Origin: a virus
Taxonomy: Duplodnaviria; Heunggongvirae; Uroviricota; Caudoviricetes
Direction: 5' to 3' (one strand)
Virus record (IMG/VR): IMGVR_UViG_2681813146_000008
Coordinates: 1 to 46,757 of that record
DNA: 46,757 nt
In this document: positions 697 through 37,450 of the stretch, in pieces
Numbering within the stretch: the stretch's first letter is position 1
Layout: every line of letters starts with the position of its first letter
The notes under the pieces: model-generated
The model's input: the letters and a program-made list of their open reading frames with translations, nothing else
Database searches by the model: none
What the model was told of the DNA's origin: nothing
Position numbers and translations under genes: made by a program

Positions 697-1059
697 GGGG
701 CTGATTCTGGATTCGACGGGATTTGCGAAACCCAAGGTGCATGCCGAGGGGCGGTTGGCCTCGTAAAAAGCCGCAAAAAATAGTCGCAAACGACGAAAAC
801 TACGCTTTAGCAGCTTAATAACCTGCTTAGAGCCCTCTCTCCCTAGCCTCCGCTCTTAGGACGGGGATCAAGAGAGGTCAAACCCAAAAGAGATCGCGTG
901 GAAGCCCTGCCTGGGGTTGAAGCGTTAAAACTTAATCAGGCTAGTTTGTTAGTGGCGTGTCCGTCCGCAGCTGGCAAGCGAATGTAAAGACTGACTAAGC
1001 ATGTAGTACCGAGGATGTAGGAATTTCGGACGCGGGTTCAACTCCCGCCAGCTCCACCA
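697..1059 (+). ncRNA. ssrA: tmRNA (SsrA), 363 nt
   Basis: Starts GGGGCTGATTCTGGATTCGACGGG, contains the tag reading frame gcaaacgacgaaaactacgctttagcagcttaa (ANDENYALAA-stop, about 786-818) and ends with the tRNA-like acceptor arm GGGTTCAACTCCCGCCAGCTCCACCA. Confidence 0.96.
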
Positions 1060-1062
1060 AAT
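1015..1062 (+). repeat. Prophage att repeat, ssrA-proximal copy (48 bp, covers the ssrA 3' end)
   Basis: atgtaggaatttcggacgcgggttcaactcccgccagctccaccaaat, identical to 33268-33315. Confidence 0.9.
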
Positions 1063-1069
1063 AAATCAA

Positions 1070-1100
1070 GGGGTTACGTGAAAGCGTAGCCCCTTTTTCT
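1070..1100 (+). terminator. Intrinsic terminator downstream of ssrA
   Basis: GC hairpin (ggggttacg / cgtagcccc) followed by a T5 run. Confidence 0.6.
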
Positions 1101-1182
1101 TAGGTAGTGGCGGCAAAATGGCGACAGACTTTTGCGTCCATCTTGCCTGTCGCCATCTTGAAATCATGCAAAGAGGTTTGAC

Positions 1183-1665
1183 ATGGAAGAACTTCACTTT
1201 GTTTACATCAATGCAAATGGTCGTATCGGTGTTCACTCTATACAGAGCATCAGTTATAGCGAAAATCATATACAGGGCATTTGTAAGAACACCGATCGAA
1301 TAAAAACCTTCCGAAAAGACCGCATTCTTAAACAGTACGATTCACCAGAACAAGCCATTCAGGAATGCACATCATTCCTCCCCGAAAACTACTCACATCT
1401 CACTAAGCAGTCTGGTCCGAAAAAAAATACATTCGATGTGTGTTTCACCGGATTTAAGAAAGCAGATAAAGAAAGATTGGTTGATAAGGCGAATGAACAA
1501 GGATTAACGGTAAGAACCTCTGTAACCCAAAGCCTTCAGATGCTCTGTTGCGGTTACAATGCAGGCCCATCAAAAGTATCGGCAGCCAGGATGAAAGGCA
1601 CAATCATCATAGATGAGCCTGGCTTTATACATTTTCTTGAAACGGGTGAGATCCCAGATGAATAA
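1183..1665 (+). CDS. Hypothetical protein with WYL-like N-terminal motif and BRCT-like C-terminal domain
   Basis: 160-aa ORF with AGAGG RBS; RTFRxDRI-type motif (KTFRKDRI); C-terminal pattern resembles the LigA BRCT domain. AT-rich relative to neighbours. Confidence 0.6.
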   Translation: MEELHFVYINANGRIGVHSIQSISYSENHIQGICKNTDRIKTFRKDRILKQYDSPEQAIQECTSFLPENYSHLTKQSGPKKNTFDVCFTGFKKADKERLVDKANEQGLTVRTSVTQSLQMLCCGYNAGPSKVSAARMKGTIIIDEPGFIHFLETGEIPDE

Positions 1666-1691
1666 AAACCTGCCGTAGCAGGTTCTCTTTC

Positions 1692-1910
1692 TCAAAAATT
1701 CATATGCCCCTGACCACCTGGCAATGGATGTGGAGGAGCAGTAGCAATCAGTGCGGGTGTCACAATAAACCGGACCACTGTTTCATGGGTAACAAAAGTG
1801 CTCCCGCAGTTAATATTTTGGCACTGGCAGTAACGCTCTTTGGTGCTTTCAGTTACTTGAAAACTGCTCCTTGTGTGTGCCGCATGACCACACTTTGGAC
1901 AATTCATCAT
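1692..1910 (-). CDS. ogr: Ogr/Delta-family zinc-finger late transcription activator
   Basis: C-x2-C...C-x4-C motif (CPKCGHAAHTRSS...CQCQNINCGSTF) closely matching P2 Ogr; start set at the internal Met to give 72 aa; located after gene D next to the att site as in P2. Confidence 0.9.
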   Translation of the reverse strand: MMNCPKCGHAAHTRSSFQVTESTKERYCQCQNINCGSTFVTHETVVRFIVTPALIATAPPHPLPGGQGHMNF

Positions 1911-1978
1911 ATCCAGATCCCTACCTTTGCTATCAGAATTATTGTAATGATACACAAAATATCAATATTGAGAACGCT

Positions 1979-3079
1979 TTATTCCATTTCAAGATCATCA
2001 ATCTTCACTTCGAGTTCAATACTGGTTGTAAAACCGTTATCCGGGCTGACGGTATGTGTCAGAGTCGTAATGGTCCATTCCGCATCATCTATCGGCTGTT
2101 TAAAACCACTGACCTTCACAGGCATTTCCGTGTAGAGATCTGCCCGCCCTTCTGCCAGTTGTAGCGAAAATGACGCAACGCCGCGTTGCAGGCGTTCCCA
2201 CTGCATTTTCGCCGCTCGTTCGGCGTTGCTCCGGTTGGCATAAGTGCGATTAAGTACCAGCACGTTTTCATCCGTACCCACCAGGTAATCGCCCTGCTTC
2301 GCTTCCGGCTCTTTCTTCTGCTTCTTAGTTCTGCGCTTACGCTTCACCGTGGTGCTTTCTTTCTTCGCAGGTTCGCGGGTATGCAACCAGCTGGCAATTA
2401 CGCCCGTGTAGGCTCCGCGATCTGCCAGGGTAAATCGGTGACTGTCGCCGTCCTTGCGTGTGATAGTGATCACTGGCAGAGGTTTACCAGTGGCGCTTTT
2501 GCCCTGCCCCTGCCGGATGAATAACAGATTGCCATTTTTCACCGACGCGATGGCACCGTACTGTCGCGCCAGCCGCATCAGAAAACTGCCGTCACTCTCA
2601 TTAGTCTGGTCTATATGCTCCACGGGCTTATCCGACAGGTCTTTACCCAGTGCCATCTTCAGCTTGTGCCGCGCGGCTATTTCCTTCACCACTTCCCCGA
2701 CGGTGGTCTTATGCCACGATTTTTCACGGCGGGTATTCAGCGTTTCCCGAAAATCAGCACTTCGCGCCCGGATAGTCAGGCGGTCCGGTGCGCCAGTGTG
2801 TTCAATCTCGTCCACTGTGAATGCCCCTTTAGGGAAAAGCGGCTGCCCCTTCCAGCCCAGCGCCAGCGTAATGACCGCACCACGGCGCGGCAGCACGATT
2901 TTTCCGTCAGCGTCATCCAGCTCCAGATCAAGCTGGTCCGCTTCAAAGCCCCGGTTATCCGTCAGCGTCAGACTCATCAGGCGGTTATCCAGCACAGTGG
3001 TGATATCCCTGCCCTCAATACTGATGCTGAATGCGGGAGTTTTGTTGCCTTTGTTAAGCAGTTCAGAGCTGAAATTCAC
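1979..3079 (-). CDS. D: Tail protein D (late control gene D family)
   Basis: 366 aa; position after U-T and before ogr; recognised P2 gpD-like sequence. Confidence 0.88.
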   Translation of the reverse strand: MNFSSELLNKGNKTPAFSISIEGRDITTVLDNRLMSLTLTDNRGFEADQLDLELDDADGKIVLPRRGAVITLALGWKGQPLFPKGAFTVDEIEHTGAPDRLTIRARSADFRETLNTRREKSWHKTTVGEVVKEIAARHKLKMALGKDLSDKPVEHIDQTNESDGSFLMRLARQYGAIASVKNGNLLFIRQGQGKSATGKPLPVITITRKDGDSHRFTLADRGAYTGVIASWLHTREPAKKESTTVKRKRRTKKQKKEPEAKQGDYLVGTDENVLVLNRTYANRSNAERAAKMQWERLQRGVASFSLQLAEGRADLYTEMPVKVSGFKQPIDDAEWTITTLTHTVSPDNGFTTSIELEVKIDDLEME

Positions 3080-3561
3080 GACAGCAGCCCTCCCACCGTT
3101 TTACTGATATCGCTTAAGGCAGACGTTGCCGTTTCCTGCAGATTATTCAGTTGCGCACTGAGATCACCGAACATATCGGACAGGGATTCATCCACCCGTT
3201 TGAGCGACAGGGTGAACTCAATCCGGCGCGGCATACCGTCGCGGAAAAACTCCGTTTTAGTCTGATTCAGTCCCTCAATCACATACATGCCATAAATCGT
3301 GCCGCTGCCTTCAATCAGGGGCCATGCTTTCCCCTGTTCTGCCATCTGCTCCAGTGCCAGCAACGACAGCCTGCCACCTGTTATCTCCGGCATAAGAACA
3401 CCGGAAAGCGTCAGCATGTCGTTGTCCGGTCCCAGAAACTGCGTGGACGGACGTCGGTTTACCCGGCTGTTTGCCGCATGTCGCCAGCTGCGTTGATACT
3501 GCAGCTCCTGATACGGCACGGTGCGCAGCATAAACACGTACAATCCCAGCACCATCATCAT
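3076..3561 (-). CDS. U: Tail protein U
   Basis: 161 aa, overlaps D start and T stop; P2 gpU-like. Confidence 0.88.
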   Translation of the reverse strand: MMMVLGLYVFMLRTVPYQELQYQRSWRHAANSRVNRRPSTQFLGPDNDMLTLSGVLMPEITGGRLSLLALEQMAEQGKAWPLIEGSGTIYGMYVIEGLNQTKTEFFRDGMPRRIEFTLSLKRVDESLSDMFGDLSAQLNNLQETATSALSDISKTVGGLLS

Positions 3562-6500: not shown

Positions 6501-6635
6501 CTGCTTTATTGCATCGCGGGATTTTTTGACAGCAGCAGCCAGTTCTCTTGAACTGGCCTGCGCAGATCGAAATGGGCGGGTGAGCTTGTCAACCGCATTA
6601 AGAATGACCTGCAGACGCAGGTTGTTATCACTCAT
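3558..6635 (-). CDS. T: Tail tape measure protein T
   Basis: 1025-aa Ala/Leu-rich coiled-coil and hydrophobic segments typical of tape measure proteins; P2 gene order E-E'-T-U-D. Confidence 0.9.
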   Translation of the reverse strand: MSDNNLRLQVILNAVDKLTRPFRSAQASSRELAAAVKKSRDAIKQLDQAGSSLDSFRKLQAENQKLGDRLNYARQRANLLSQELGAMGPPSQRQVVALGRQRLAVQRLEERQKKLQQQTALVRAELYRAGISAKDDAGATARLARETSRYNQELSKQEARLKRLGEAQRRMNAARASYASSLEVRDRIAGAGATTTAAGLAMGAPVMAAVKSYTSMEDAMKGVAKQVNGLRDDNGNRTARFYQMQDAIKAASEQLPMENGAVDFAALVEGGARMNVANPDDSWEDQKRDLLAFASTAAKAATAFELPADELSESLGKIAQLYKIPTRNIEQLGDALNYLDDNAMSKGADIIDVMQRLGGVADRLDYRKAAALGSTFLTLGAAPEVAASAANAMVRELSIATMQSKSFFEGMNLLKLNPEVIEKQMTKDAMGTIQRVLEKVNALPQDKRLSAMTMLFGKEFGDDAAKLANNLPELQRQLKLTAGNDALGSMQKESDINKDSLSAQWLLVKTGAQNTFSSLGETLRQPLMDILYTVKSVTGALRRWVEANPELTGTLMKASAVVAAVTVGLGTLAVALAAVLGPLAVIRLGFSVLGIKTLPSVTAAVTRTSSALSWLAGAPLALLRRGLASSGNAAGLLTAPLSSLRRTASLTGNVLKTVAGAPVALLRSGLSGLRAVAVMFMNPLAVLRGGLTAAGAVLRVLASGPLAMLRVALYAVSGLLGALLSPIGLVVTALAGVALVVWKYWQPITAFLGGVVEGFKAAAGPVSAAFEPLKPVFQWIGDKVQALWGWFTDLLTPVKSTSAELQSAAAMGRRFGEALAEGLNMVMHPLDSLKSGVSWLLEKLGIVSKEAAKAKLPESVTRQQPATVNADGKVMMPSGGFPSWGYGFAGMYDSGGYIPRGQFGIVGENGPEIVNGPANVTSRRNTAALAAVVAGMMGVAAAPAELPPLHPLALPAKGGEAMVSRAATVPPVQRIEAPMQIIIQTQPGQSAQDIAREVARQLDERERRLKAKARSNYSDQGGYDA

Positions 6636-7064
6636 CGTTGGCCCCGCTTCTCTGAATCGCTTTATACCGCCATTCCAGCACTTCGGTCAGCGGCATAACG
6701 TCAGTAACGGATGGCGGCCAGTGAAAAATGGTGGCGATATCTGCCACCAGATCGTCAACCGTCAGGCTGTCGGTAAACCGGCAAGCACCGACTTCTTCAA
6801 CAAAAAAGTGACAACCTCAACCGACATGGCAGTGAGATCTGCCGGGTCCATCTCTGCAATTTCCTGTGCAGTCAGTGCCGGACTGGAGATGCGGGGGATC
6901 ACGGTCATCATCGCGTTTACATCCATATCCATAATGGCCTGCAGGCGTGTACCGCGCAGCGCACCGGACTGCGGTTTACGCAGCACAATTTCGGTGATTT
7001 CTGTTTTACCGCGCTTGATGGGGGTATCCAGTTGAATGGTCTTTTCAGTCTGCTTATCGCTCAT
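6628..7064 (-). CDS. Tail assembly chaperone E+E' fusion via programmed -1 frameshift
   Basis: Slippery T6G on the minus strand at 6801-6807; the -1 frame stays open for 57 codons to a TGA at 6628-6630, overlapping the T start; predicted fusion about 145 aa (P2 E+E' is about 142 aa). Confidence 0.7.
6762..7064 (-). CDS. E: Tail assembly chaperone E
   Basis: 100-aa ORF between FII and T; contains the slippery heptamer TTTTTTG near its 3' end. Confidence 0.88.
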   Translation of the reverse strand: MSDKQTEKTIQLDTPIKRGKTEITEIVLRKPQSGALRGTRLQAIMDMDVNAMMTVIPRISSPALTAQEIAEMDPADLTAMSVEVVTFLLKKSVLAGLPTA

Positions 7065-7118
7065 TTTGCTGTCCTGTCAATTGGGTTCTGGCGCGGTATC
7101 CCGCGCCGTTCAGATATA

Positions 7119-25077: not shown

Positions 25078-27471
25078 TCAGTACCACTGACGCCATTTGT
25101 CATCTTCCTGCAGCCTCTGGTTACGGTAAAAAATACGTAAACCGGCACCGGATGGAATGCTGCCGCCACGCAGAAGCAAATCAATCTCAGATGCACTACC
25201 TTCAAACCCTCTGGCAGTCAGTTCTGCCTCAAGCTGCAGGCGCTGCTGCTCCGAAATACTCTGTATGTATGCTTTTTTCCGCTTCGGTTTTACCAGTCTC
25301 AACCTGGCTGTCAGCTCCCGCCGTTCCTTCTGGCCCATGTTGTGGAGATATTCCTGCAGCTCCTTCTCACCCATGGTTTTAATATCAGGTAAATCACCCC
25401 CTGATTTGTTCAGATTTTCAACAGGGGGACAGTTATTGCCACGAGTCCAAGGGGCGCAAGCGCCCTGGTCGGCTGCCGCCTCCTGAACGTCAACGGCCTT
25501 ACGAACCATTTTCCACTTCACTGCATGAGTGCAGATCTTGCCCTCTGCAATGGGTGACCAGATGCCATAAATACGAATGCCGTGATCGCCATAGGCGGTC
25601 GGCTCTTCGTTGATTTCATAAGCGGTTCTGATCAGGTGATATTTGCGGGGAACCAGTACGCCGCCCTGCTTCATGATGTAGGTGGCAAAACAACCAGCAT
25701 CAGCAGCAGCCAGGATTGCATCAAGGCGCGGGTTATCCAGTACCGGCGCACCTGCTTTTTTGTCCCCCTGTTGCCTTGCCGCCTGACCAGCCAGCAATCG
25801 CAGTTCACGGTAAGCCTGACGCCCCGGAATGCCAAAGAAGCGGAATTGCTGAACACGATGCAGAGACGCCCAGGCATTAACGTATTCAGCATTATCACGC
25901 AGGGATTTCCCCGTTTCCTTGCTGATCTCGCCAGCCAGACCACGCCCGTCAATGTTCTTACTGATGTATTTCGCGATGTAGCTTGTTGGCGTACCTTTGC
26001 GCGGGTTAATCAACTCAGACTTAAAGCGCGGCCCAGTGTTATTGCCCAGCTCCTCGCGGTCTTCACGGATGGCAAACTTACGCAGTAATACAGTGATGGC
26101 GCGGCGGTCTTTTTTGCGCATAAAACACAACAGGTGCCAGTGAACTGTACCGTCATGATGCGGCTCAGCCACCCGCACGCCATACCAGCGCAATCCGGCT
26201 TTGTGCATCGCCTTACGAAATGCAGCAAACATGCCGACCAGGTAATCACTACTTTGTCTTACCGTCGCATTTGTCCAGGTTGGGTTGGGCCTGCCGTTAT
26301 TTAGCGTGGAATGGAAACGTGACGGACAGGTGATGGTGTAGAAAACGGCACAGTCACTGCGCATTTCTGCGATAAGCTCCAGACCTTTAACACAGGCCAT
26401 CATCTCATTGCGGCGATGCGCCGGGTTGCTGCTGCTGGCGTTTACCACATCTTCCATATCCAGCGTGTCACCGTCTTCGTTCACCAGTTCATGAGAACGG
26501 AAAAACTCCAGCGACTTACGGCGCTGCTCACGTTTATGCATCACGGCTTCATAGCTGACATAGGGAGATACTTTTTTGCTGACCAGACAGACAGCACGCA
26601 ACTGCTCTTCCCGCCATTCGCAACGCATCTTCCATAATTTCCTATGCCACCAGTCGGCGCACAGCATACGCGCCAGCGAACCCGGAATGAGTTCATAGGG
26701 CACGGGTTTACGGCGGTTTCTTTTCCGACGGAGTTGCTCAAACGCAGGCGGGATGACATCCAGTCGCAGGGTTTCTGCTGCCACCTTTTCCCATGTCTTG
26801 CGGATTTCTTCTGGCTTAACATCATCGGTGGCGTACAAATCACCACAAGCGGCATCAAGACACATGCTCATATGCGCAGCGACAAGAGTAGACAGGCGTT
26901 TCACCTGATCCTGACTCATTTCAGGCAGGATCAGCAGGCCGTCCAGCCCTTCATGGCTTGCCATAAAGCGAAAAGAAGTGGATAGCTGACTCTCGCGTAC
27001 ATGCTCCAGTCGTTCCAGACATGGCTTAATCGTCTCACGCAAATAGCGGGAATAAGCCTTTGGCCTGCCCAGGCTGCTGAAGTATTCAATACGTTGCATC
27101 AGCGGCTTGCTGATATGGGAAGGCTGGGCGCTGACATCTGCCAGAATGACCATGTCTGGGTTAAAACGCTGCTGCTCATGCGCCAGCTTTGCCCGACTAA
27201 TGAGCTTATCCTGCTCCATTTCGCGCTGGACAGGATCACGGGATTCATTAAAGAAATAACGCTCCCAGACCTGATCACTCAGTGCCTCACGGCGCAGCAG
27301 TTCCTGCTCGTTATCGGCAGCGTACAGAGTGATCAGGTTTGAGAGCGCAGAAACCGGCGCAACTTCCGCCGGGTCCAGATAAGGGTTAATGGCCTTTTTC
27401 GGGCTGTTCCATGAGAACGATGCGGCAGCCTCGTTAAAGCCGCAGCAGTTGTTCATATCGGCATGGTTCAT
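25078..27471 (-). CDS. A: Replication initiation protein A (rolling-circle nickase family)
   Basis: 797-aa ORF with P2 gpA-like motifs ([22 protein letters not shown]); the true start may be an internal Met. Confidence 0.88.
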
Positions 27472-28325
27472 GCACGTACTCCGTACACGGCAGAACTATC
27501 CACGCCACGCGAATAATCAAATCCCACCCAGCAGCGCGGCCCGGAAACAGCGATGATTTCTGTTGCAGATTTACTCTCACCAGCTGCTACGCCGATGCTG
27601 CGTTTTGCCTTGATGTAGTGGTGAGTAAAATTGCGATACAGCGAACGGATCAGGGATGTGTCACTGTTAGAAATAATGACCGGATGTCCTTCTGATGACC
27701 GATGTTCAAGAACGGATGCCAGGTGATACTGGTCATCTTCAGTGAAGCCGTCAGTGTGATAACCGGAAAACGTGCCGTCATACGGCGGATCGCAATACAC
27801 CACATCCCCCGCCTTCAACATCGCTAGCGTTTCATCAAAGCTGGCGCAGATAAACGTTGCCCGCTGGGCTTTTTCTGCAAATGCGCGAATTTCTTTTTCA
27901 GGAAAATACGGATTTTTATAATTACCGTAGGGAATGTTGAAATGCCCGCTCTTGTTATAGCGACATAAACCACGGTAACCGTGACGATTGAGATACAGGA
28001 AATATACCGCTTTCATGAAATCAGTAATTTCAGTTGAGTAATTAAACTCCTGCCTTATGTTGTAATAAGCCACCTCCCTGTTTGCTTCCTCAAATAAAGC
28101 TCTGGCGCGAGATATAAACGATTCACAATCAGCAGCAACCTTTTTATAGAGGTTGATTAAATCAGGATTAATATCCGCAACAAGATAGCTGGGGTACTCC
28201 GTCTCCATCATCACTGCACAGGAACCCGCGAAAGGTTCAACCAGTCGCGGGCCAGCAGGAAGGTGTTTTTTCAGTTCGGACATAATTGCGGTTTTATTTC
28301 CCGCCCATTTCAGGATGGTGCTCAT
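27468..28325 (-). CDS. dam: DNA adenine methyltransferase (Dam family)
   Basis: DPPY catalytic motif and AdoMet-binding FAGSC motif; start set at [11 protein letters not shown] (ATGA coupling with the upstream gene); the track ORF extends to 28385. Confidence 0.85.
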
Positions 28326-28549
28326 ACAGCACCTCCGTTGTAATGTTTGCCTTTCAGCTCTGCGATTTCCTGACAGGTAATGCAAAGCTGCACTCCAGGA
28401 ATGGCGCGGCGGCGTGCTGGCGGAATTGGCGCTTCACATTCAATGCAAAGCACGCGGGACACGCCCGGTGTTTTGGCACGGGCAGCACGGATATGGCGCT
28501 GGCGTTCTTCTTCAACGCGCTGCTGTACGAGATCCATTGCATCAGCCAT
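28322..28549 (-). CDS. TraR/DksA-family zinc-finger protein
   Basis: 75 aa with C-x2-C...C-x2-C (CIECEAP...CITCQ). Confidence 0.75.
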   Translation of the reverse strand: MADAMDLVQQRVEEERQRHIRAARAKTPGVSRVLCIECEAPIPPARRRAIPGVQLCITCQEIAELKGKHYNGGAV

Positions 28550-30266: not shown

Positions 30267-30899
30267 ATGATACAGGTAAAGGTTGGAGAGAATACAGGGG
30301 GAAGAGAGGCTATCCATAGACTAATGGCAGCCTATGATTTCAAGTCCAGACAGCAACTTTGCGATCACTTAGGCGCATCAAAAAGCACCATGGCAAACAG
30401 ATACTTAAGAGATAGTTTTCCTGCAGAGTGGGTGATTCAGTGCGCCTTGGAAACAGGAGTTTCTTTACTGTGGCTAACCACCGGACAGGGGGAGCCAGGT
30501 CCAAACATTGAACCTAAAAAAAATATCAATTCCGTGAACTCCAGCAAGGTTGTACCTCTTTCTGAACTAGTATCTCCTGAAATTGACAAGGCGACTCTCA
30601 ACGGTGGTTTATTGGTCGATGCTGGAAAAGCAATCATTGATAGCAGCATACTCCCCTCAGACTCAAGCAACCTACTGCTGGTGACTACTTCTGGTGATTC
30701 TTATTTAATAGATCGCAACCAAACACCACCAGTAAATGGTATGTGGTTAGTCGATATCGACGGGATAAAAAGCATCGTTAAATTGACCCGACTCCCGGGA
30801 AACAAATTAGTAGTGCATCAGGATGATTCATCGTTTGAGTGCGGTCTGGATGACATTGAGGTAGTAGGCCGCGCACTGAAAATCATTAAGAGCCTTTGA
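30267..30899 (+). CDS. cI: CI immunity repressor (186 CI-like)
   Basis: 210 aa with N-terminal HTH; followed directly by int (lysogenic operon). Confidence 0.8.
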   Translation: MIQVKVGENTGGREAIHRLMAAYDFKSRQQLCDHLGASKSTMANRYLRDSFPAEWVIQCALETGVSLLWLTTGQGEPGPNIEPKKNINSVNSSKVVPLSELVSPEIDKATLNGGLLVDAGKAIIDSSILPSDSSNLLLVTTSGDSYLIDRNQTPPVNGMWLVDIDGIKSIVKLTRLPGNKLVVHQDDSSFECGLDDIEVVGRALKIIKSL

Positions 30900-30900
30900 T

Positions 30901-31920
30901 ATGACCATCAGAAAACAGCCGAACGGAAAATGGTTGTGTGAGTGCTATCCCAATGGACGCAATGGCAAGCGCGTGCGTAAGCAATTTGCCACGAAAGGCG
31001 AAGCCATTGCGTTTGAAAGCTTCACAATGGAAGAAGTGAATAAAAAACCGTGGTTGGGTGAAAAGGATGATCGGCGACGCCTATCAGAATTAATTGAGCT
31101 TTGGTATTCCCTGTATGGTCAGACACTCGCAGACCCCAAGCGCCTCATGGCGAAACTTAGAATTATCTGTAATGGTCTAGGCGACCCCATCGCCTCTGAG
31201 CTGACAGCAGGTGATTTCACAAAATATCGGGAAGCCAGATTAAAGGGGGAGGTCCAAAATGAAGACGGTTCGTTCATGTCACCCGTTAAACCTCGCACAG
31301 TTAATCTTGAGCAGCGTAACCTGTCATCGGTGTTCGGTACATTGAAAAAACTAGGGCACTGGTCCGCACCAAACCCGCTGGCAGGGCTTCCAACCTTCAA
31401 AATTGCTGAAGGTGAATTGGCTTTTCTTTCCACGGACGAAATCAAACGCCTGTTGGCTGCATGTGCTGAATCTCAAAGCCCGAGCCTACTAATGATTACC
31501 AAAATATGCTTAGCTACCGGCGCACGGTGGAGTGAAGCCGAAAAACTGCAGGGCCATCAGTTATCCAAATACCGCATCACTTATACCAAGACGAAGGGCA
31601 AGAAAAACCGTACCGTGCCGATATCTCAGGAGCTGTACAACGAACTTCCTAAAAACCGAGGGAAGTTATTCTCGCCATGCAGAAAAGCCTTTGAGCGTGC
31701 AGTAAAGCGGGCCGGTATTGAGCTTCCAGAGGGTCAATGCACCCATGTATTACGTCATACATTTGCCAGCCATTTTATGATGAACGGAGGAAACATACTT
31801 GTTCTTAAAGAGATTCTCGGTCATACAGATATAAAAATGACAATGGTTTATTCTCATTTTTCCCCAGACCATCTTGAAGATGCCGTTACCAAAAACCCTT
31901 TACATATGTTAACTATTTGA
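30901..31920 (+). CDS. int: Tyrosine integrase (P2/186 type)
   Basis: 339 aa; C-terminal catalytic R...H-x-x-R...Y (HVLRHTFASH, MVYSHF). Confidence 0.92.
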   Translation: MTIRKQPNGKWLCECYPNGRNGKRVRKQFATKGEAIAFESFTMEEVNKKPWLGEKDDRRRLSELIELWYSLYGQTLADPKRLMAKLRIICNGLGDPIASELTAGDFTKYREARLKGEVQNEDGSFMSPVKPRTVNLEQRNLSSVFGTLKKLGHWSAPNPLAGLPTFKIAEGELAFLSTDEIKRLLAACAESQSPSLLMITKICLATGARWSEAEKLQGHQLSKYRITYTKTKGKKNRTVPISQELYNELPKNRGKLFSPCRKAFERAVKRAGIELPEGQCTHVLRHTFASHFMMNGGNILVLKEILGHTDIKMTMVYSHFSPDHLEDAVTKNPLHMLTI

Positions 31921-31930
31921 GCTTACCAAA

Positions 31931-33151
31931 ATGGATATTAAAAACAAAGTCAATAAAGAAAAGTTATTTGAGAACCATTTAAACTCATTATTAAAACAAG
32001 TCATTTCCGAACCAAAATTAAACCCTCCACTTATAGTACATAGAGATATAATAAGTGACTTCACTGAACGTTGCGATAAGTATCTAAAAACAATAATTAA
32101 ATACAAAAGCAACAATAAAGATGGGATGCCGAATTTTGATGAATTAATCAGCAAAGTTAAGAACATTCAAAATGGAATAACATTATCACTTGAAAGTTTT
32201 TTATCAGGTGATATCAAGTCAGCATATGACCACTTTGATAAAACATTCTCTGATAACTCAACAATCCAACACATACATCGCATCACTACTCCACTCAGTA
32301 GCATTTGCAATCATAAAAAACCATTATTTCGAGTTAGAAAAAGTGAAAATCCTCTAACGTCAAGAGATGAAATTTTCCATATTCCATTCTCCAATAGACA
32401 TTTTGTTAGTGCACAAAGATATTCAGTCGCTGGCTTACCATGTTTATATCTTGGCACTTCTGTTTATGTTTGTTGGCAGGAGATGGGAAAACCAGATTTT
32501 GACAAGCTTTTTATTTCATCATTTACTACCAGTGAAACTGAATATAAAGTCTTAAACTTTGCATCACAGCTTTTGTTACATCCCTCACCAAATTACGCCG
32601 ACGAAAATAAACTAGCCGAAACAAATAGAGTAAAGGCCTCTTATCTCATTTTCTGGCCTTTAATTATTGCATGTAATTATTTAAAAAATCATCGTTCTGC
32701 AACATTCATACAAGAGTACATTATCCCTAATTTGTTGATGCAATGGATTAGTAGAAAAACTTACTCGAAAATTGTCGGTGTAGCTTACTTCTCTACAAAA
32801 ATGCCTAATTCACGATTAAGTAACCGCTCAATAAATGTTGTATTTCCACCCAAAGTTACATATGAACAAACGGTAAAACAAAATTTTTGCCCTAAACTCT
32901 CCACATTATTCGACTTTACGCCACCTATTTCGTGGCAGGTCTTAAAAACATTAGATCATTCATCAATAACAGAAAATTCAATAGAATTGATGATGTCAAA
33001 GAGATATCTTCAAAGTCAAGAAAAACTGTCTGGAATTAAAAACTTCGAAGAGGACATTGTAAAACTATACCCCTTAACTGATTTTTACAAACTCGAAAGA
33101 AGTATTGATATGCTATTTGAATATAAAAAGATAGATAACCCCATACTATAA
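31931..33151 (+). CDS. AT-rich hypothetical protein with a RES-like motif (cargo between int and att)
   Basis: 406-aa ORF, strongly AT-rich and Lys/Asn-rich versus neighbouring phage genes; central segment RYSVAGLPCLYLGTSVYVCWQE resembles the RES-domain core; same strand and 10 nt downstream of int. Confidence 0.6.
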   Translation: MDIKNKVNKEKLFENHLNSLLKQVISEPKLNPPLIVHRDIISDFTERCDKYLKTIIKYKSNNKDGMPNFDELISKVKNIQNGITLSLESFLSGDIKSAYDHFDKTFSDNSTIQHIHRITTPLSSICNHKKPLFRVRKSENPLTSRDEIFHIPFSNRHFVSAQRYSVAGLPCLYLGTSVYVCWQEMGKPDFDKLFISSFTTSETEYKVLNFASQLLLHPSPNYADENKLAETNRVKASYLIFWPLIIACNYLKNHRSATFIQEYIIPNLLMQWISRKTYSKIVGVAYFSTKMPNSRLSNRSINVVFPPKVTYEQTVKQNFCPKLSTLFDFTPPISWQVLKTLDHSSITENSIELMMSKRYLQSQEKLSGIKNFEEDIVKLYPLTDFYKLERSIDMLFEYKKIDNPIL

Positions 33152-33267
33152 AACTGGCGACAAATTGGCGGCAGAACTTTAAAATCACATAAAACAGCCA
33201 AACACAAGATAAGACTAATTCACTGATTTAAAACGTAAATATCTATTTTCACTATAATATAAATGGT

Positions 33268-33315
33268 ATGTAGGAATTTCGGACGCGGGTTCAACTCCCG
33301 CCAGCTCCACCAAAT
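33268..33315 (+). repeat. Prophage att repeat, distal copy (48 bp); also the left junction of the P4-like element
   Basis: Perfect copy of 1015-1062. Confidence 0.9.
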
Positions 33316-33496: not shown

Positions 33497-34684
33497 GTGG
33501 CACGGACAACACGCCCCCTTACCAACACCGAAGTTCTTCGCGCTAAAGCGTTAGAGAAGGATCTAACTCTGCATGATGGCGATGGCCTTTTCCTGATAGT
33601 GAAAACCAGCGGGAAAAAGCTCTGGCGTTTCCGTTATCAACGTCCAGCGACAAAACAGCGGACAATGATGGGGCTTGGTGCTTTCCCCGCCCTTTCACTT
33701 GCTGACGCCCGAGGGTTAAGAGCGGATTACCTTGCCTTGTTAGCCAACGGAATTGACCCACAAATTCAGGCCGAAGTTGCAGAGGAACAGCAGCAAATCG
33801 CTCTGGACAGTATTTTCTCAATGGTCGCCGCTAACTGGTTCCAGCTCAAAAGTAAAAGCGTTACCCCTGATTACGCAAAAGACATTTGGCGCTCATTGGA
33901 GAAAGATGTATTCCCTGCCATCGGTGAGATCCCCGTTCAGCAAATTAAAGCCCGAATATTAGTTGAAGCATTGGAACCAATCAAAGCTCGTGGAGCGCTT
34001 GAGACTGTACGTCGACTAGTGCAGCGTATTAACGAGATAATGATTTATGCCGTAAACACTGGTCTGATTGATGCCAATCCAGCATCAGGTATTGGAATGG
34101 CCTTTGAGAAGCCCAAAAAACAAAACATGCCGACGCTGCGGCCAGAAGAATTGCCGAAGCTGATGCGTTCTTTAGTCATGTCAAATCTGTCTGTTCCGAC
34201 TCGCTGTCTCATTGAATGGCAACTCCTGACGCTCGTGCGCCCTTCTGAGGCCTCTGGTGCCCGTTGGGCAGAGATCGATCTCGATACGAAGCTCTGGACT
34301 ATTCCAGCCGAACGGATGAAAGCTAAGCGGGAACACATTGTTCCTTTATCACCACAGGCATTAGAGATTCTGGATGTAATGAAGCCAATTAGCGCTCACC
34401 GAGAACATGTTTTTCCCAGCAGGAATGATCCTAAACAACCTATGAATAGCCAAACTGCTAATGCTGCTCTTAAAAGGATTGGTTATGGCGGTAAACTCGT
34501 TGCTCATGGGCTTCGTTCTATAGCTAGCACAGCGTTGAACGAGTCTGGTTTTAATTCCGATATTATAGAATCAGCTTTAGCGCATATAGATAAAAATGAA
34601 GTACGGCGGGCGTATAATCGTTCTATTTATTTAGAACAACGCAGAGAATTGATGTCATGGTGGGGTATAAAAGTAAAATCATAG
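33497..34684 (+). CDS. int: Tyrosine integrase, P4/CP4-57 IntA family
   Basis: 395 aa, GTG start with AAGGAG RBS; adjacent to the ssrA 3' end repeat as in CP4-57. Confidence 0.92.
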   Translation: MARTTRPLTNTEVLRAKALEKDLTLHDGDGLFLIVKTSGKKLWRFRYQRPATKQRTMMGLGAFPALSLADARGLRADYLALLANGIDPQIQAEVAEEQQQIALDSIFSMVAANWFQLKSKSVTPDYAKDIWRSLEKDVFPAIGEIPVQQIKARILVEALEPIKARGALETVRRLVQRINEIMIYAVNTGLIDANPASGIGMAFEKPKKQNMPTLRPEELPKLMRSLVMSNLSVPTRCLIEWQLLTLVRPSEASGARWAEIDLDTKLWTIPAERMKAKREHIVPLSPQALEILDVMKPISAHREHVFPSRNDPKQPMNSQTANAALKRIGYGGKLVAHGLRSIASTALNESGFNSDIIESALAHIDKNEVRRAYNRSIYLEQRRELMSWWGIKVKS

Positions 34685-34698
34685 GGCTTTCGCCCTAT
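34681..34698. terminator. Bidirectional hairpin between convergent int and the 913-aa gene
   Basis: atagggc-tttc-gccctat. Confidence 0.4.
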
Positions 34699-34708
34699 GA
34701 TTTAATAA

Positions 34709-37450
34709 TTATAAAGTTTCCAATGCGAAATTTCGATATCTCATTAGTGCATAAATATATCTAGTAGTAGATGCAGGTGTCCATGTTCTCTCAAGTTCTT
34801 TTGCTAGTGCTGCCCCCATCATTTTCTTATCATCATCGCCAAATTTATTTACATAAGCATTTAATATTTTGATAGCTGGAGATTCAGTGACTAACCTAGC
34901 TAAAGCCCTTTCAAGGCTGATGCTTTCTAATATAACTTCTATTTTATTATTTATCACCACACCATCATCTTGTCGAGAACAAAAACCTAAAGAAATTAAA
35001 TCCTGCACTGCATTCCTATGTTTATTCGCCTGAATGAATGAATGGCTCATTTTTTTATTGGCGCACAGATACTCGGCAACTTCGAGTGTTTTTTCTGGCG
35101 AAGTAGCAGCTAAGAAAAGTGATCCTCTTCTATTACGTGCCCCTCTTTTATCTAGATCAATCGCCCCAAATGCTGGGGAAAACAACTCGCCATCATATAT
35201 AACCACAGATTTCCCGATAACCGCTATCAGCCCCGTAAATTGTAACCAAGCCAATAATTTTGAACTATAAGACTTAGGATAACCACCGTCTTTATTCTTA
35301 TAAGTATGGGCTATTATAGATTCATACTTATCGATAGGAACTCTTCTTAAATCGGCATCAACAATATTCTCTGCCAATTCTAACAAAACACTATGACTCT
35401 TAAAATGCTCACGAAGAAACTCAGGGACATTTGTGATAGTCTGTTTACAAACTATATTCCCATTTAAATCTCTGTCTATGAGAACAAAATACTGCAAATC
35501 CATTAAAACATTTATTAATGTTCCCCGACTATATTTTAGTTTAGTTTGCAGTTCATCCAAGCTAATGGTTTTGAACGAGTTTACAACATCAAGAATTAAC
35601 AAAACCATTTTCGGAGATGTTGATGGCATATATGACCATGGTATAACTGGAAGGTCATTTCCTTTCAAGTAATCTCGAAAAACGTCCCAATACACTGATA
35701 ATTTTTCACCTGTTTTAATTACCATCCTATCTGAAATTAGCTCTAAAACAGTATCACTCCCAAACTCTTTAGTAACTTCATATTGACTAATCGGAGAGTT
35801 CTTTGCCACAAATTTTAAACATGAATTTTGTTTTTCAGGCCTATCTAAATCCTCATGAAATAAATTTGAGATCTGTAGTTGACTAACCAACATTTGATCC
35901 TGTGAGATACCTCCTTTTAGTTTTTTGAATACATGAATACAAAGCTTTTTCAATAACCATGGATAACCTTGAGCTTGCTGAATAAGACGCGTGCGTAAAG
36001 GTTTATTTAATTTAAACCCTGTATTTAGCTCGAAACTATTAATTAATTTAGATGAATCTTTTAGATCAAAAGGCTCAAGTTTCTTTTCAACCCTATAATC
36101 TTTTAGCCGATTCCACATTGAGTACGCTGGATTTTCATCCCCTAAAGTAATACCAGTTCTCCATGAGAACCCTACAACTAAATTGCTTTGTAGTGCCGAG
36201 ACATCGAGTGCGAATCGTTCAAATTCTTTAAATAGCCCGAATAGTTCCTCTTTCATAAAGACTTCTTCGAACTGATCAAAGAAAATAGTCAATACCTTAT
36301 CATGTTCGGAAAGGTATTTTAAACATTCCTGAACACTCTCAGATCCTATGATATCCGTAACACTCTCAATCAGGAATGGTTTTTCATATTCGATAAAACC
36401 TTCTTTGATCGCACTGCTGAAAGCTTTAACGACAGCTTCTGCCACAAAACGTCCGCCTCTAGCAGAACGGACATCGACTGGTGTAAGGAAGAATTTATTC
36501 TTCCATTTTTGATTTTTAAATCTTGAGGATAGCCTTGCTATTAAAGATGACTTTCCATTTCCTGAACCGCCTATAAGTGATAGGACTCTACTTTGAGAGC
36601 TATTTCCTCTAACATTCTCAAGATAATCCCAAACTTCTTTCTGTATATATTCGCGACCAACAAAGTCTTTCGGCTGACATGGCTTATAATCCATAAAATC
36701 GTCAGCAAGAATTATTTCACTGACAATTTCCCTTTCGTAATTTTCAGATAATTTTGAAGACGAAACAGTTTGTTCCGGTTCAGATAATATATAAAAATCA
36801 GTTACTTCCAACCCTTCAAAAAGCCCTTGCTCCTTTATAATATCACTTATGCGACTGACACTTGGAATTTTACTATTTTTATTTATAGCGAACGGCACCA
36901 CTCTTATAGGGCTACCATTTTCAACTTCTTGCAAAAGCCAAGTCATTTCTATTTCAGGATGAACTAAAAGTGTTGCACTAGTATATTTTGCCGGAATGTC
37001 ATCTGTTGGAATATCCTCAACCTTACCTGTTGCAAGTATAGATATAAGAATCTCTTTTTTATCAAAAAAAGAATAATCTATACGCTCATCAAGTCTATAA
37101 TCCTCAAGCGTTGACTGAGCATCTTTACCCAAATCAGAAATTGAAAAAAGTGCAATTTTTTTAACTCTCAACCTAAATGCTTGAGAAAATGCCAAATCAA
37201 CCACAGATGAATCAACTTTTTGCTGCATGAATTTACATTCTACATACAGCTTTTCATTTGATGGTGTATGAGTAGCCTGAATATCAATTTCCATGCCAGA
37301 TTTTCTGACTTCCATACCATCAATTCTATACGATTGCCGGCGGAGTATATCAGCGCAAAAATTCTCGAAAAACTTCCCTCTCGAGGTATTGGAATAATTA
37401 CTAGGTACACAAACTATCAAATCTTTATTCAGTGGTAACGGCCTGGCCAT
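34709..37450 (-). CDS. Large hypothetical protein: N-terminal Mrr-like PD-(D/E)xK nuclease motif plus P-loop NTPase; candidate antiviral defence protein
   Basis: 913-aa AT-rich ORF; N-terminus GMEIDIQA...YVECKF (D...E-x-K); Walker A LIGGSGNGKSSL and Walker B-like VLTIFFDQFEE; occupies the position of gop-beta-cII between cos and int. Confidence 0.7.
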   Translation of the reverse strand: MARPLPLNKDLIVCVPSNYSNTSRGKFFENFCADILRRQSYRIDGMEVRKSGMEIDIQATHTPSNEKLYVECKFMQQKVDSSVVDLAFSQAFRLRVKKIALFSISDLGKDAQSTLEDYRLDERIDYSFFDKKEILISILATGKVEDIPTDDIPAKYTSATLLVHPEIEMTWLLQEVENGSPIRVVPFAINKNSKIPSVSRISDIIKEQGLFEGLEVTDFYILSEPEQTVSSSKLSENYEREIVSEIILADDFMDYKPCQPKDFVGREYIQKEVWDYLENVRGNSSQSRVLSLIGGSGNGKSSLIARLSSRFKNQKWKNKFFLTPVDVRSARGGRFVAEAVVKAFSSAIKEGFIEYEKPFLIESVTDIIGSESVQECLKYLSEHDKVLTIFFDQFEEVFMKEELFGLFKEFERFALDVSALQSNLVVGFSWRTGITLGDENPAYSMWNRLKDYRVEKKLEPFDLKDSSKLINSFELNTGFKLNKPLRTRLIQQAQGYPWLLKKLCIHVFKKLKGGISQDQMLVSQLQISNLFHEDLDRPEKQNSCLKFVAKNSPISQYEVTKEFGSDTVLELISDRMVIKTGEKLSVYWDVFRDYLKGNDLPVIPWSYMPSTSPKMVLLILDVVNSFKTISLDELQTKLKYSRGTLINVLMDLQYFVLIDRDLNGNIVCKQTITNVPEFLREHFKSHSVLLELAENIVDADLRRVPIDKYESIIAHTYKNKDGGYPKSYSSKLLAWLQFTGLIAVIGKSVVIYDGELFSPAFGAIDLDKRGARNRRGSLFLAATSPEKTLEVAEYLCANKKMSHSFIQANKHRNAVQDLISLGFCSRQDDGVVINNKIEVILESISLERALARLVTESPAIKILNAYVNKFGDDDKKMMGAALAKELERTWTPASTTRYIYALMRYRNFALETL

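Follow-up and report, generated by a model that had tools for sequence, protein, structure and literature searches.

We analysed a window of 46,757 nucleotides (nt) of DNA from a tailed phage of the class Caudoviricetes (positions 1 to 46,757 of the IMG/VR virus record IMGVR_UViG_2681813146_000008). It contains a prophage of about 32.25 kb integrated in the 3′ end of ssrA and, at the left edge of this prophage, a small open reading frame (ORF) whose product joins a WYL domain to a BRCT domain (the WYL-BRCT gene). The window starts with smpB (1–483), followed by ssrA, the gene of transfer-messenger RNA (tmRNA; 697–1059). Since the prophage is bounded by a direct repeat (1015–1062 and 33268–33315), the WYL-BRCT ORF begins 120 nt inside its left end. 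In the region 480–2100 a search of Rfam returned no match other than tmRNA.

The original prediction, made from the letters of the DNA, placed an ORF of 160 amino acids (aa) with a good ribosome-binding site between the att repeat and ogr, convergent with the latter. This description stands. The program-made ORF list gives 1183–1665 on the plus strand with an ATG start and 160 aa, and the translation is identical, including KTFRKDRI and CFTGF...GPSKV...GTIII. A word-seeded search recovered 122 homologues, among which the MEE[LM]HF start is conserved. In the fetched loci with an identity of at least 55%, 87 of 88 copies are intact. For most close alleles the ratio of nonsynonymous to synonymous substitution (dN/dS) is about 0.06–0.3 (about 0.1), and in the 70%-identity group the synonymous sites are saturated at a dN of about 0.2. 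As judged from these substitution patterns, the gene is under purifying selection. ORF 1183–1665 is a real gene and no chance reading frame. It occurs in 171 of 5426 complete Escherichia coli genomes (3%), while 182 carry this ogr allele.

In the structure model, the N-terminal half of the protein forms the five-stranded Sm/SH3-like β-barrel of the WYL family (PF13280), and 53–54 of 58 residues superpose at 1.6–2.2 Å on the WYL barrels of proteins with the order winged helix-turn-helix (wHTH), WYL and WCX. The window protein gives no match to Pfam WYL even at E ≤ 10. The same model is matched by 4 of 40 homologues (best 1.5e-5), and the family members P0148, P0251 and P0259 score 27.8–28.6 bits with a cut-off of 21.8. 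Pfam WYL membership is therefore, at the level of sequence, a property of the family and not of the window sequence alone. In the position of the WYL motif the window protein has N-H-I and many homologues x-Y-I/L, with the W lost. The strand KTFRKDRI, which can be aligned with PafBC and Pif1, is conserved, with T42 invariant and F43 kept in at least 90%; its motif T42-F43-R44-x-D46-R47-I, in the last strand, is strongly conserved in the WYL-BRCT family. A profile of the N-terminal domain, run against the sequences of the PDB, returned only sub-threshold hits (E 0.46–2.4); all three are WYL proteins, which is no evidence by itself. Thus, the WYL call of the original prediction is supported by the barrel fold and by the Pfam matches of family members.

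A ligand for such a barrel is known from other proteins. CapW holds single-stranded DNA (ssDNA) on the top face of its WYL domain with a strand-1 serine, two arginines that flank the WYL motif and an arginine of the last strand, and its binding mode was described as 'essentially identical' to that of DriD (PMC11662680). By this precedent, the WYL domain of the window protein would also bind ssDNA, as in PafBC, DriD and CapW.

The C-terminal half shows the β1-α1-β2-β3-α2-β4-α3 fold of BRCT domains (PF00533). Against Pfam BRCT the window protein reaches 19.6 bits (cut-off 21.3; E=1.1e-3), 32 of 40 homologues match at E<0.01, and relatives score 26–54 bits. A profile of the C-terminal domain, compared with solved structures, finds the BRCT of RFC1 first (6.3e-6) and then that of LigA (3.4e-5 to 1e-3). 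These profile matches, the fold and the homologues in Pfam BRCT bear out the earlier assignment of this half. Nothing besides WYL, linker and BRCT was found in the 160 aa by Pfam or in the structure model. The linker of about 28 residues is of lower confidence and the model as a whole has a pTM of 0.52, so the two domains are probably not rigidly held.

Several conserved residues of the BRCT half fall on known positions. The FTG of yeast RFC1 is matched in the alignments by the invariant F-T89-G90, the helix-1 arginine of human RFC1 by K96 (conserved in at least 90%), and the lysine of 'GxSK' in RFC1 and LigA by the invariant K131. By sequence, all parts of a phosphate pocket are present, namely T/S-G in the β1-α1 loop, a basic residue in α1 and a lysine at the start of α2. 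Kobayashi and co-workers are said to have found in 2010 that DNA ends are held by their 5′-phosphate through the RFC1 counterparts; tandem BRCTs use this pocket for phosphoserine. By analogy with RFC1 and LigA, the T-G...K(...K) pocket of the window protein would hold the 5′-phosphate at a nick or a recessed end.

The names given to this protein in databases point elsewhere. It is labelled 'DNA ligase' in PHROG 2561 and in RefSeq (ORF34 of PHL101, and 500465-1) and 'putative exonuclease' in the phage Cartapus, while the NCBI pipeline uses 'BRCT domain-containing protein' or 'hypothetical protein'. We rejected the NAD-dependent ligase LigA as an identity: its models match only aa 43–156, the BRCT end, with 11–19.5 bits and cut-offs of 369–1051, and the 160-aa protein has no adenylation domain (KxDG), OB fold, Zn finger or HhH. 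A DEDDh exonuclease with a C-terminal BRCT (NF004719) was dropped as well, as only positions 229–307 of the 331 in the model are matched, with 26 bits and a cut-off of 389. The ligase and exonuclease names are wrong, because the NCBIfam models match the BRCT stretch alone and lie far under their cut-offs. In the case of known defence proteins, the match to SspE in PADLOC was marginal. The wHTH and WCX domains of the CapW, BrxR, PafBC and DriD regulators were found neither with Pfam nor in the model, where the WYL domain begins at residue 3.

In an exhaustive profile search each protein represents one 50%-identity cluster. At a threshold of E<1e-3 it returned 2764 proteins, of which 889 remain at E<1e-10 and 198 at E<1e-30. 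Nearly all of the best 150 representatives cover both domains. According to a simple hydropathy test, 79 of them are stand-alone proteins of about 150–195 aa, 45 (about 30%) have 1–5 predicted transmembrane segments (41 N-terminal, 4 C-terminal) and about 20 have soluble extensions. The predicted membrane-anchored forms fall within P0141–P0262, and some of them are encoded behind the repressor in P2-like prophages (L118, L120, L123). For the anchored forms the positive-inside rule gave a weak signal (24 positive, 11 negative), and we draw no conclusion from it. Some relatives have a duplicated WYL or BRCT domain. When viral proteins were searched by structure, the only matches were viral NAD ligases, via their BRCT, and a few small uncharacterised phage proteins of like size; WYL-BRCT or BRCT proteins of similar size occur in Vibrio phage SSP002 and Serratia phage JS26.

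Outside P2 contexts, WYL-BRCT modules are recurrently accompanied by a sequence of about 120–200 aa with the motif W-x-QG..F.F.EGD..Y, which we call 'domain X'. It is fused at either end of the module or encoded next to it (loci L096, L097, L099 at 6502–7098 and L115 at 2174–3163; proteins P0121, P0123, P0131, P0155, P0168, P0181, P0185, P0236 and P0254). 'Domain X' has no Pfam match and no counterpart in the window, and it is a probable functional partner of the WYL-BRCT modules. Some copies outside prophages adjoin AbiGi-like or McrB_N-HNH genes. Additionally, directly 3′ of the homologue in a gammaproteobacterial metagenome-assembled genome (L105, 6601–7206) lies a gene with WYL-like strands, IHYKDSSGDISERLISNF...AFCHMRNARRTFKLANI, followed by an unassigned domain, again with no Pfam match.

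The closest free phages are Escherichia Cartapus and 500465-1 (98%) and Yersinia MLG42 (73%), of the genus Elveevirus. In these phages the order is cI, int, optional cargo, attP and WYL-BRCT, the latter facing ogr, with D following. As attP lies between int and the WYL-BRCT gene, the gene is cut off from cI-int upon integration and becomes the one that follows ssrA, which is its position here and in nearly all of the 80 IMG/VR loci retrieved. In the circular phage, the stretch of cI, int and cargo stands directly upstream of attP and the WYL-BRCT gene.

The original prediction suggested asking whether homologues always flank P2-like att sites. They do not: in most other P2-like lineages the gene follows the repressor gene, 4–32 nt behind it on the same strand and convergent with D. 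Such copies are found in Vibrio PV94, Mannheimia PHL101 and relatives, Burkholderia vB_FUB5a and relatives, Hafnia, Brenneria, Rahnella and Acerihabitans, and also in Aeromonas, Marinobacter, Wohlfahrtiimonas, Pasteurellaceae and one betaproteobacterium. In PHL101 the annotated ribosome-binding site of the gene lies inside the cI repressor gene. The preceding repressor is of the 186-CI type in some phages and of a self-cleaving S24/LexA-like type in others, so the association with the lysogeny operon is one of position and not with one repressor family.

That this is no standard gene of P2 or 186, as had been suggested, agrees with the common P2-like prophages at ybjL, where the slot holds nothing and ogr stands directly at the prophage end. 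Elsewhere the slot is filled differently. In E. coli 5735 (L126, NZ_CP154887.1, 3001–5850), whose otherwise similar P2-like prophage is also integrated in ssrA, a reverse-transcriptase-domain gene, a small ORF and IS421 take the place of WYL-BRCT between att and ogr. This suggests that the att-ogr interval is a cargo or defence slot apart from the two published P2 hotspots. In Burkholderia phage PhiBP82.2 (NC_070912) the slot holds an unrelated 300-aa gene. The post-repressor cassette of that phage is highly expressed in lysogens and its last gene can be deleted (PMC13026187). We ruled out its gp36 as a homologue, since the gene in the slot is unrelated and tblastn finds no match in the phage. 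The study of PhiBP82.2 therefore supports a lysogen-expressed cargo slot only, and no phenotype for the WYL-BRCT family.

The stretch between the att core and the gene is marked by TGGCGRCA octamers. The window holds 15 copies where 4.9 are expected (about a three-fold excess), and the motif is invariant upstream of the WYL-BRCT gene in 12 loci, including those with other att cores. Two more copies, again in direct orientation and 11 bp apart, lie at 33155–33173, about 100 nt before attR. We considered the conserved motif as a promoter or operator and dropped this idea, as the same paired motif on the opposite att arm fits integrase (Int) sites better. Because of this recurrence, the copies upstream of the ORF are read as arm-type sites of Int and are probably those of the P′ arm of attP. 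The third, inverted copy overlaps the stretch where a promoter of the WYL-BRCT gene would have to be. A possible extended −10 element, TGaAATCAT, was noted there by eye (1159–1167). In the ssrA lineage, transcription may start from this weak element or come from ssrA read-through. The equivalent of the hairpin downstream of the gene was called on both strands in MLG42.

Table 1. Features of the WYL-BRCT locus and of the far end of the prophage
Feature	Position	Strand	Description and basis
attL core	1015–1062	+	48-nt perfect direct repeat over the ssrA 3′ end; partner 33268–33315
Phage-supplied terminator hairpin	1068–1095	+	After the rebuilt ssrA end; 12-bp stem and T-run; conserved in MLG42 attP
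TGGCGRCA octamers	1108–1155	.	Direct pair 1108–1115 and 1119–1126, inverted copy 1148–1155; motif scan
Shine-Dalgarno AGAGG	1172–1176	+	6 nt ahead of ATG, from sequence
WYL-BRCT coding sequence	1183–1665	+	160 aa and stop; ORF list; PHROG 2561 full-length E=3.6e-77; 122 homologues; purifying selection
WYL domain, aa 1–54	1183–1344	+	Five-stranded Sm/SH3-like barrel; Y8, T42, F43 conserved, FRKDRI motif; fold and alignment
Linker, aa 55–82	1345–1428	+	Two short helices; the part after them varies in length and is poorly conserved; pLDDT 69 at residues 71–80; variable alignment columns
BRCT domain, RFC1/LigA type, aa 83–160	1429–1662	+	T89, G90, K131 invariant, K96 near-invariant; ETGEIP tail; fold and alignment
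Terminator-like hairpin	1667–1684	.	Separates the convergent WYL-BRCT and ogr genes; hairpin search
ogr, late transcription activator	1692–1955	-	Convergent to the WYL-BRCT gene; Pfam Ogr_Delta E=1.5e-20; ogr annotation in related phages and genomes
Far prophage end	30267–33151	+	186-type cI 30267–30899, int 30901–31920, 406-aa cargo ORF 31931–33151; Pfam Phage_CI_repr, Phage_CI_C; Cartapus and MLG42 gene order

Other genes of the window deserve a brief description. The 406-aa ORF between int and attR (31931–33151, plus strand) directly follows int. Its product shares 45% identity with a Cartapus protein called 'RES, NAD+ binding', and neither Pfam nor PADLOC returned a match to it. MLG42 lacks this ORF. 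It would seem to be another variable cargo gene, and it is not linked to the WYL-BRCT gene. Directly beyond attR there is a second integrase with an Arm-DNA-bind_3 domain (33497–34684). It is followed on the minus strand (34709–37450) by a gene whose product of 913 aa combines a restriction endonuclease domain of the Mrr type with an nSTAND1/AAA_16 nucleoside triphosphatase (NTPase). The stretch 33497–37450 is an island in tandem at ssrA and includes a defence candidate of Avs-like type. Two further ORFs of the minus strand, in the early region, were read by eye only: one of 305 aa (27468–28385), which has a DPPY motif at its end and resembles a Dam-type adenine methylase, and one of 75 aa with four cysteines (28322–28549), which resembles a TraR/DksA-type zinc finger.

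As far as sequence and gene order tell, the WYL-BRCT gene is a moron of an Elveevirus-type, P2-like temperate phage and encodes a small accessory protein with no enzymatic domain. We judge exclusion or defence to be its likeliest role, given where it lies in the operon, that it behaves as cargo, that a defence gene takes the same slot elsewhere and that some variants are predicted to be tethered to the membrane. In its full form this is a tentative reading, which we would put somewhat short of an even chance: an accessory, non-enzymatic protein, probably expressed in lysogens, that binds ssDNA and 5′-phosphate junctions and excludes incoming DNA. The WYL and BRCT domains, joined by a flexible linker, would together recognise junctions of ssDNA and double-stranded DNA such as cohesive ends, gaps and nicked DNA. 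Made in the lysogen, the protein would bind these junctions on foreign DNA, be it the cos ends of superinfecting phages and satellites or entering ssDNA, and end-joining by the host ligase or replication would then be blocked. The outcome would be superinfection exclusion or defence by capping, or by rivalry with the host ligase for these junctions, and not by cutting, and membrane-anchored relatives would act likewise at the site of DNA entry.

A bolder version, which we consider doubtful, extends this to the whole family. WYL-BRCT proteins might be widespread, so far unrecognised prophage immunity factors that lack an effector: with no nuclease, they would recognise the ssDNA and 5′-phosphate signature of foreign DNA that enters or replicates (cohesive ends, gaps, single strands) and cap it or compete with the host ligase, either soluble in the cytoplasm or tethered at the entry site, and would be expressed from the P2-like lysogeny operon.

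A number of observations speak against exclusion by junction binding. The isoelectric point (pI) is 6.95 for the whole protein and 5.3 for the BRCT part, so neither is basic. The protein is neutral and its BRCT acidic, which is uncommon among DNA binders; a BRCT that binds proteins or nucleotides would agree with these values. In the WYL half, the family has no counterpart of the arginines next to the WYL motif of CapW and BrxR, and the W is replaced. The 5′-phosphate role of the BRCT pocket is a putative one, by analogy with RFC1. In PADLOC-DB no full-length match to a system protein was found; the BRCT part matched the C-terminal 70 positions of the candidate PDC-S48 (E=1.8e-7). As to expression, a scan for consensus sigma-70 promoters in the roughly 55 nt left between the ssrA terminator and the ATG was negative, both here and in MLG42. 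In this lineage attP and the terminator part the gene from the cI-int operon, which makes its presumed expression in the lysogen less certain. The literature on WYL or BRCT proteins and prophages or anti-phage defence yielded no experiment on any family member.

Among the other explanations, a damage sensor that tunes the switch between lysis and lysogeny stands up best, even if we think it unlikely. Here WYL would sense ssDNA that arises from damage or stalled replication, and BRCT would contact the repressor, Int or some other protein of phage or host and so promote or restrain induction or excision. Every WYL protein with a defined ligand that we found senses ssDNA as a damage signal (PMC11662680), and many P2-like phages have the gene in one operon with their immunity repressor. 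It also abuts the P′ arm of attP, with a third TGGCGACA copy overlapping its upstream region. Nevertheless, the module follows two unrelated repressor types, of which the S24 type already senses damage via RecA, and the predicted membrane anchors of about 30% of the best 150 representatives, many of them outside P2 contexts, are hard to fit to a repressor partner. Genes 3′ of the repressor affect the lytic switch in PhiBP82.2, but the gene in the last slot there is not homologous and the lysogen that lacks it is viable. Moreover, most P2-like phages do without a WYL-BRCT gene.

The protein could instead serve the phage's own DNA, which seems to us less likely again. It would guard or bridge cohesive ends, nicks and replication intermediates (in the manner of Gam, or by recruiting ligase), or serve in counter-defence as a sponge, keeping ssDNA or nucleotide signals away from host sensors such as CapW and BrxR. 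P2-type cos ends are 19-nt 5′ overhangs, and the predicted specificity for ssDNA and a 5′-phosphate fits them. The LigA-like BRCT, the similar small proteins of SSP002 and JS26, and the use of WYL by host regulators for ssDNA sensing agree with such a helper. On the other hand, the gene lies on the lysogeny strand, convergent with the late genes, and in many phages it shares a transcript with the repressor; early anti-defence genes do not usually have such a place. It is also dispensable in most P2-like phages, and membrane anchoring would not be expected of a sponge.

The original prediction implied a WYL regulator, possibly tied to defence. A WYL 'regulator' without a helix-turn-helix that serves a neighbouring defence locus is very improbable. 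WYL domains are enriched beside defence systems (PMC4012209), and this prophage has cargo ORFs and the Mrr-STAND island beyond attR. Against this, the whole protein is WYL, linker and BRCT with no wHTH, and hence no DNA-binding domain of that kind, and no WCX. The repressor is the sole conserved neighbour in P2-like phages, and the 406-aa cargo ORF is missing from MLG42, which keeps the gene. Least of all, with next to no probability, is the protein a DNA ligase or exonuclease, as these names stem from the likeness of the BRCT part to LigA and to a DEDDh exonuclease that also bears a BRCT, and 160 aa with a WYL barrel as N-terminal half leave no room for an adenylation/OB module or DEDDh. Domain content excludes both this reading and the classical WYL transcription factor.

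Should the protein indeed bind ends or gaps of DNA in lysogens, temperate phages would have a non-enzymatic means to protect the host or control the switch, and the WYL 'ssDNA sensor' would have a new output, with BRCT in place of a transcription factor. The att-ogr or cI-D interval also appears to be a third cargo slot of P2-like phages beside the two P2 hotspots, worth mining for defence genes. The 'DNA ligase' and 'exonuclease' labels in PHROGs and phage records need correction. For the present, the value of the gene, as read from sequence, lies in offering a well-defined candidate for a hypothesis of DNA-junction binding and exclusion.

As an object, WYL-BRCT is not unknown, because it appears in a 2014 listing, in PHROG 2561 and in RefSeq as 'BRCT domain-containing protein'. 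The listing is that of Makarova, Anantharaman, Grishin, Koonin and Aravind, who named BRCT among the fusion partners of WYL (PMC4012209). Their survey has the same architecture, but no function, context or description of the family, and we found no functional or contextual description of the WYL-BRCT family in the literature. New with respect to that survey are the delimitation of the family, its placement in the P2-like lysogeny region, and the variants with a membrane anchor or 'domain X'.

In its position between the repressor or integrase and the tail genes, on the lysogeny strand, the gene resembles other lysogeny cargo of P2-like phages, such as glo of K139 and the PhiBP82.2 slot. The glo gene of Vibrio phage K139 was reportedly described by Nesper in 1999 as a periplasmic immunity or exclusion gene. 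Unlike the periplasmic Glo, the WYL-BRCT protein is predicted to be cytoplasmic, and the two have no sequence relationship; tblastn found no match to it in K139 or PhiBP82.2.

With PafBC, DriD, CapW and BrxR the protein shares the WYL barrel fold, the ...TFR-x-DRI strand motif and probably the ssDNA ligand, whereas the wHTH, the WCX domain for dimerisation and the arginines of RWHVR are missing. As its output domain is BRCT, any signal must pass by binding and not by transcription. The BRCTs of LigA and RFC1 are its closest solved relatives by sequence and have the FTG loop, the pocket lysine and the fold in common with it, whereas the phage BRCT is free of a ligase or AAA+ module, is acidic and ends in a conserved, family-specific ETGEIP tail. 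Compared with BRCT proteins in general, it would be a free-standing bacterial or phage BRCT of the putative DNA-binding class. Compared with the known WYL proteins, namely wHTH-WYL-WCX regulators, WYL-helicase and the Cas13d accessory protein, what is new is a sensor coupled to BRCT alone.

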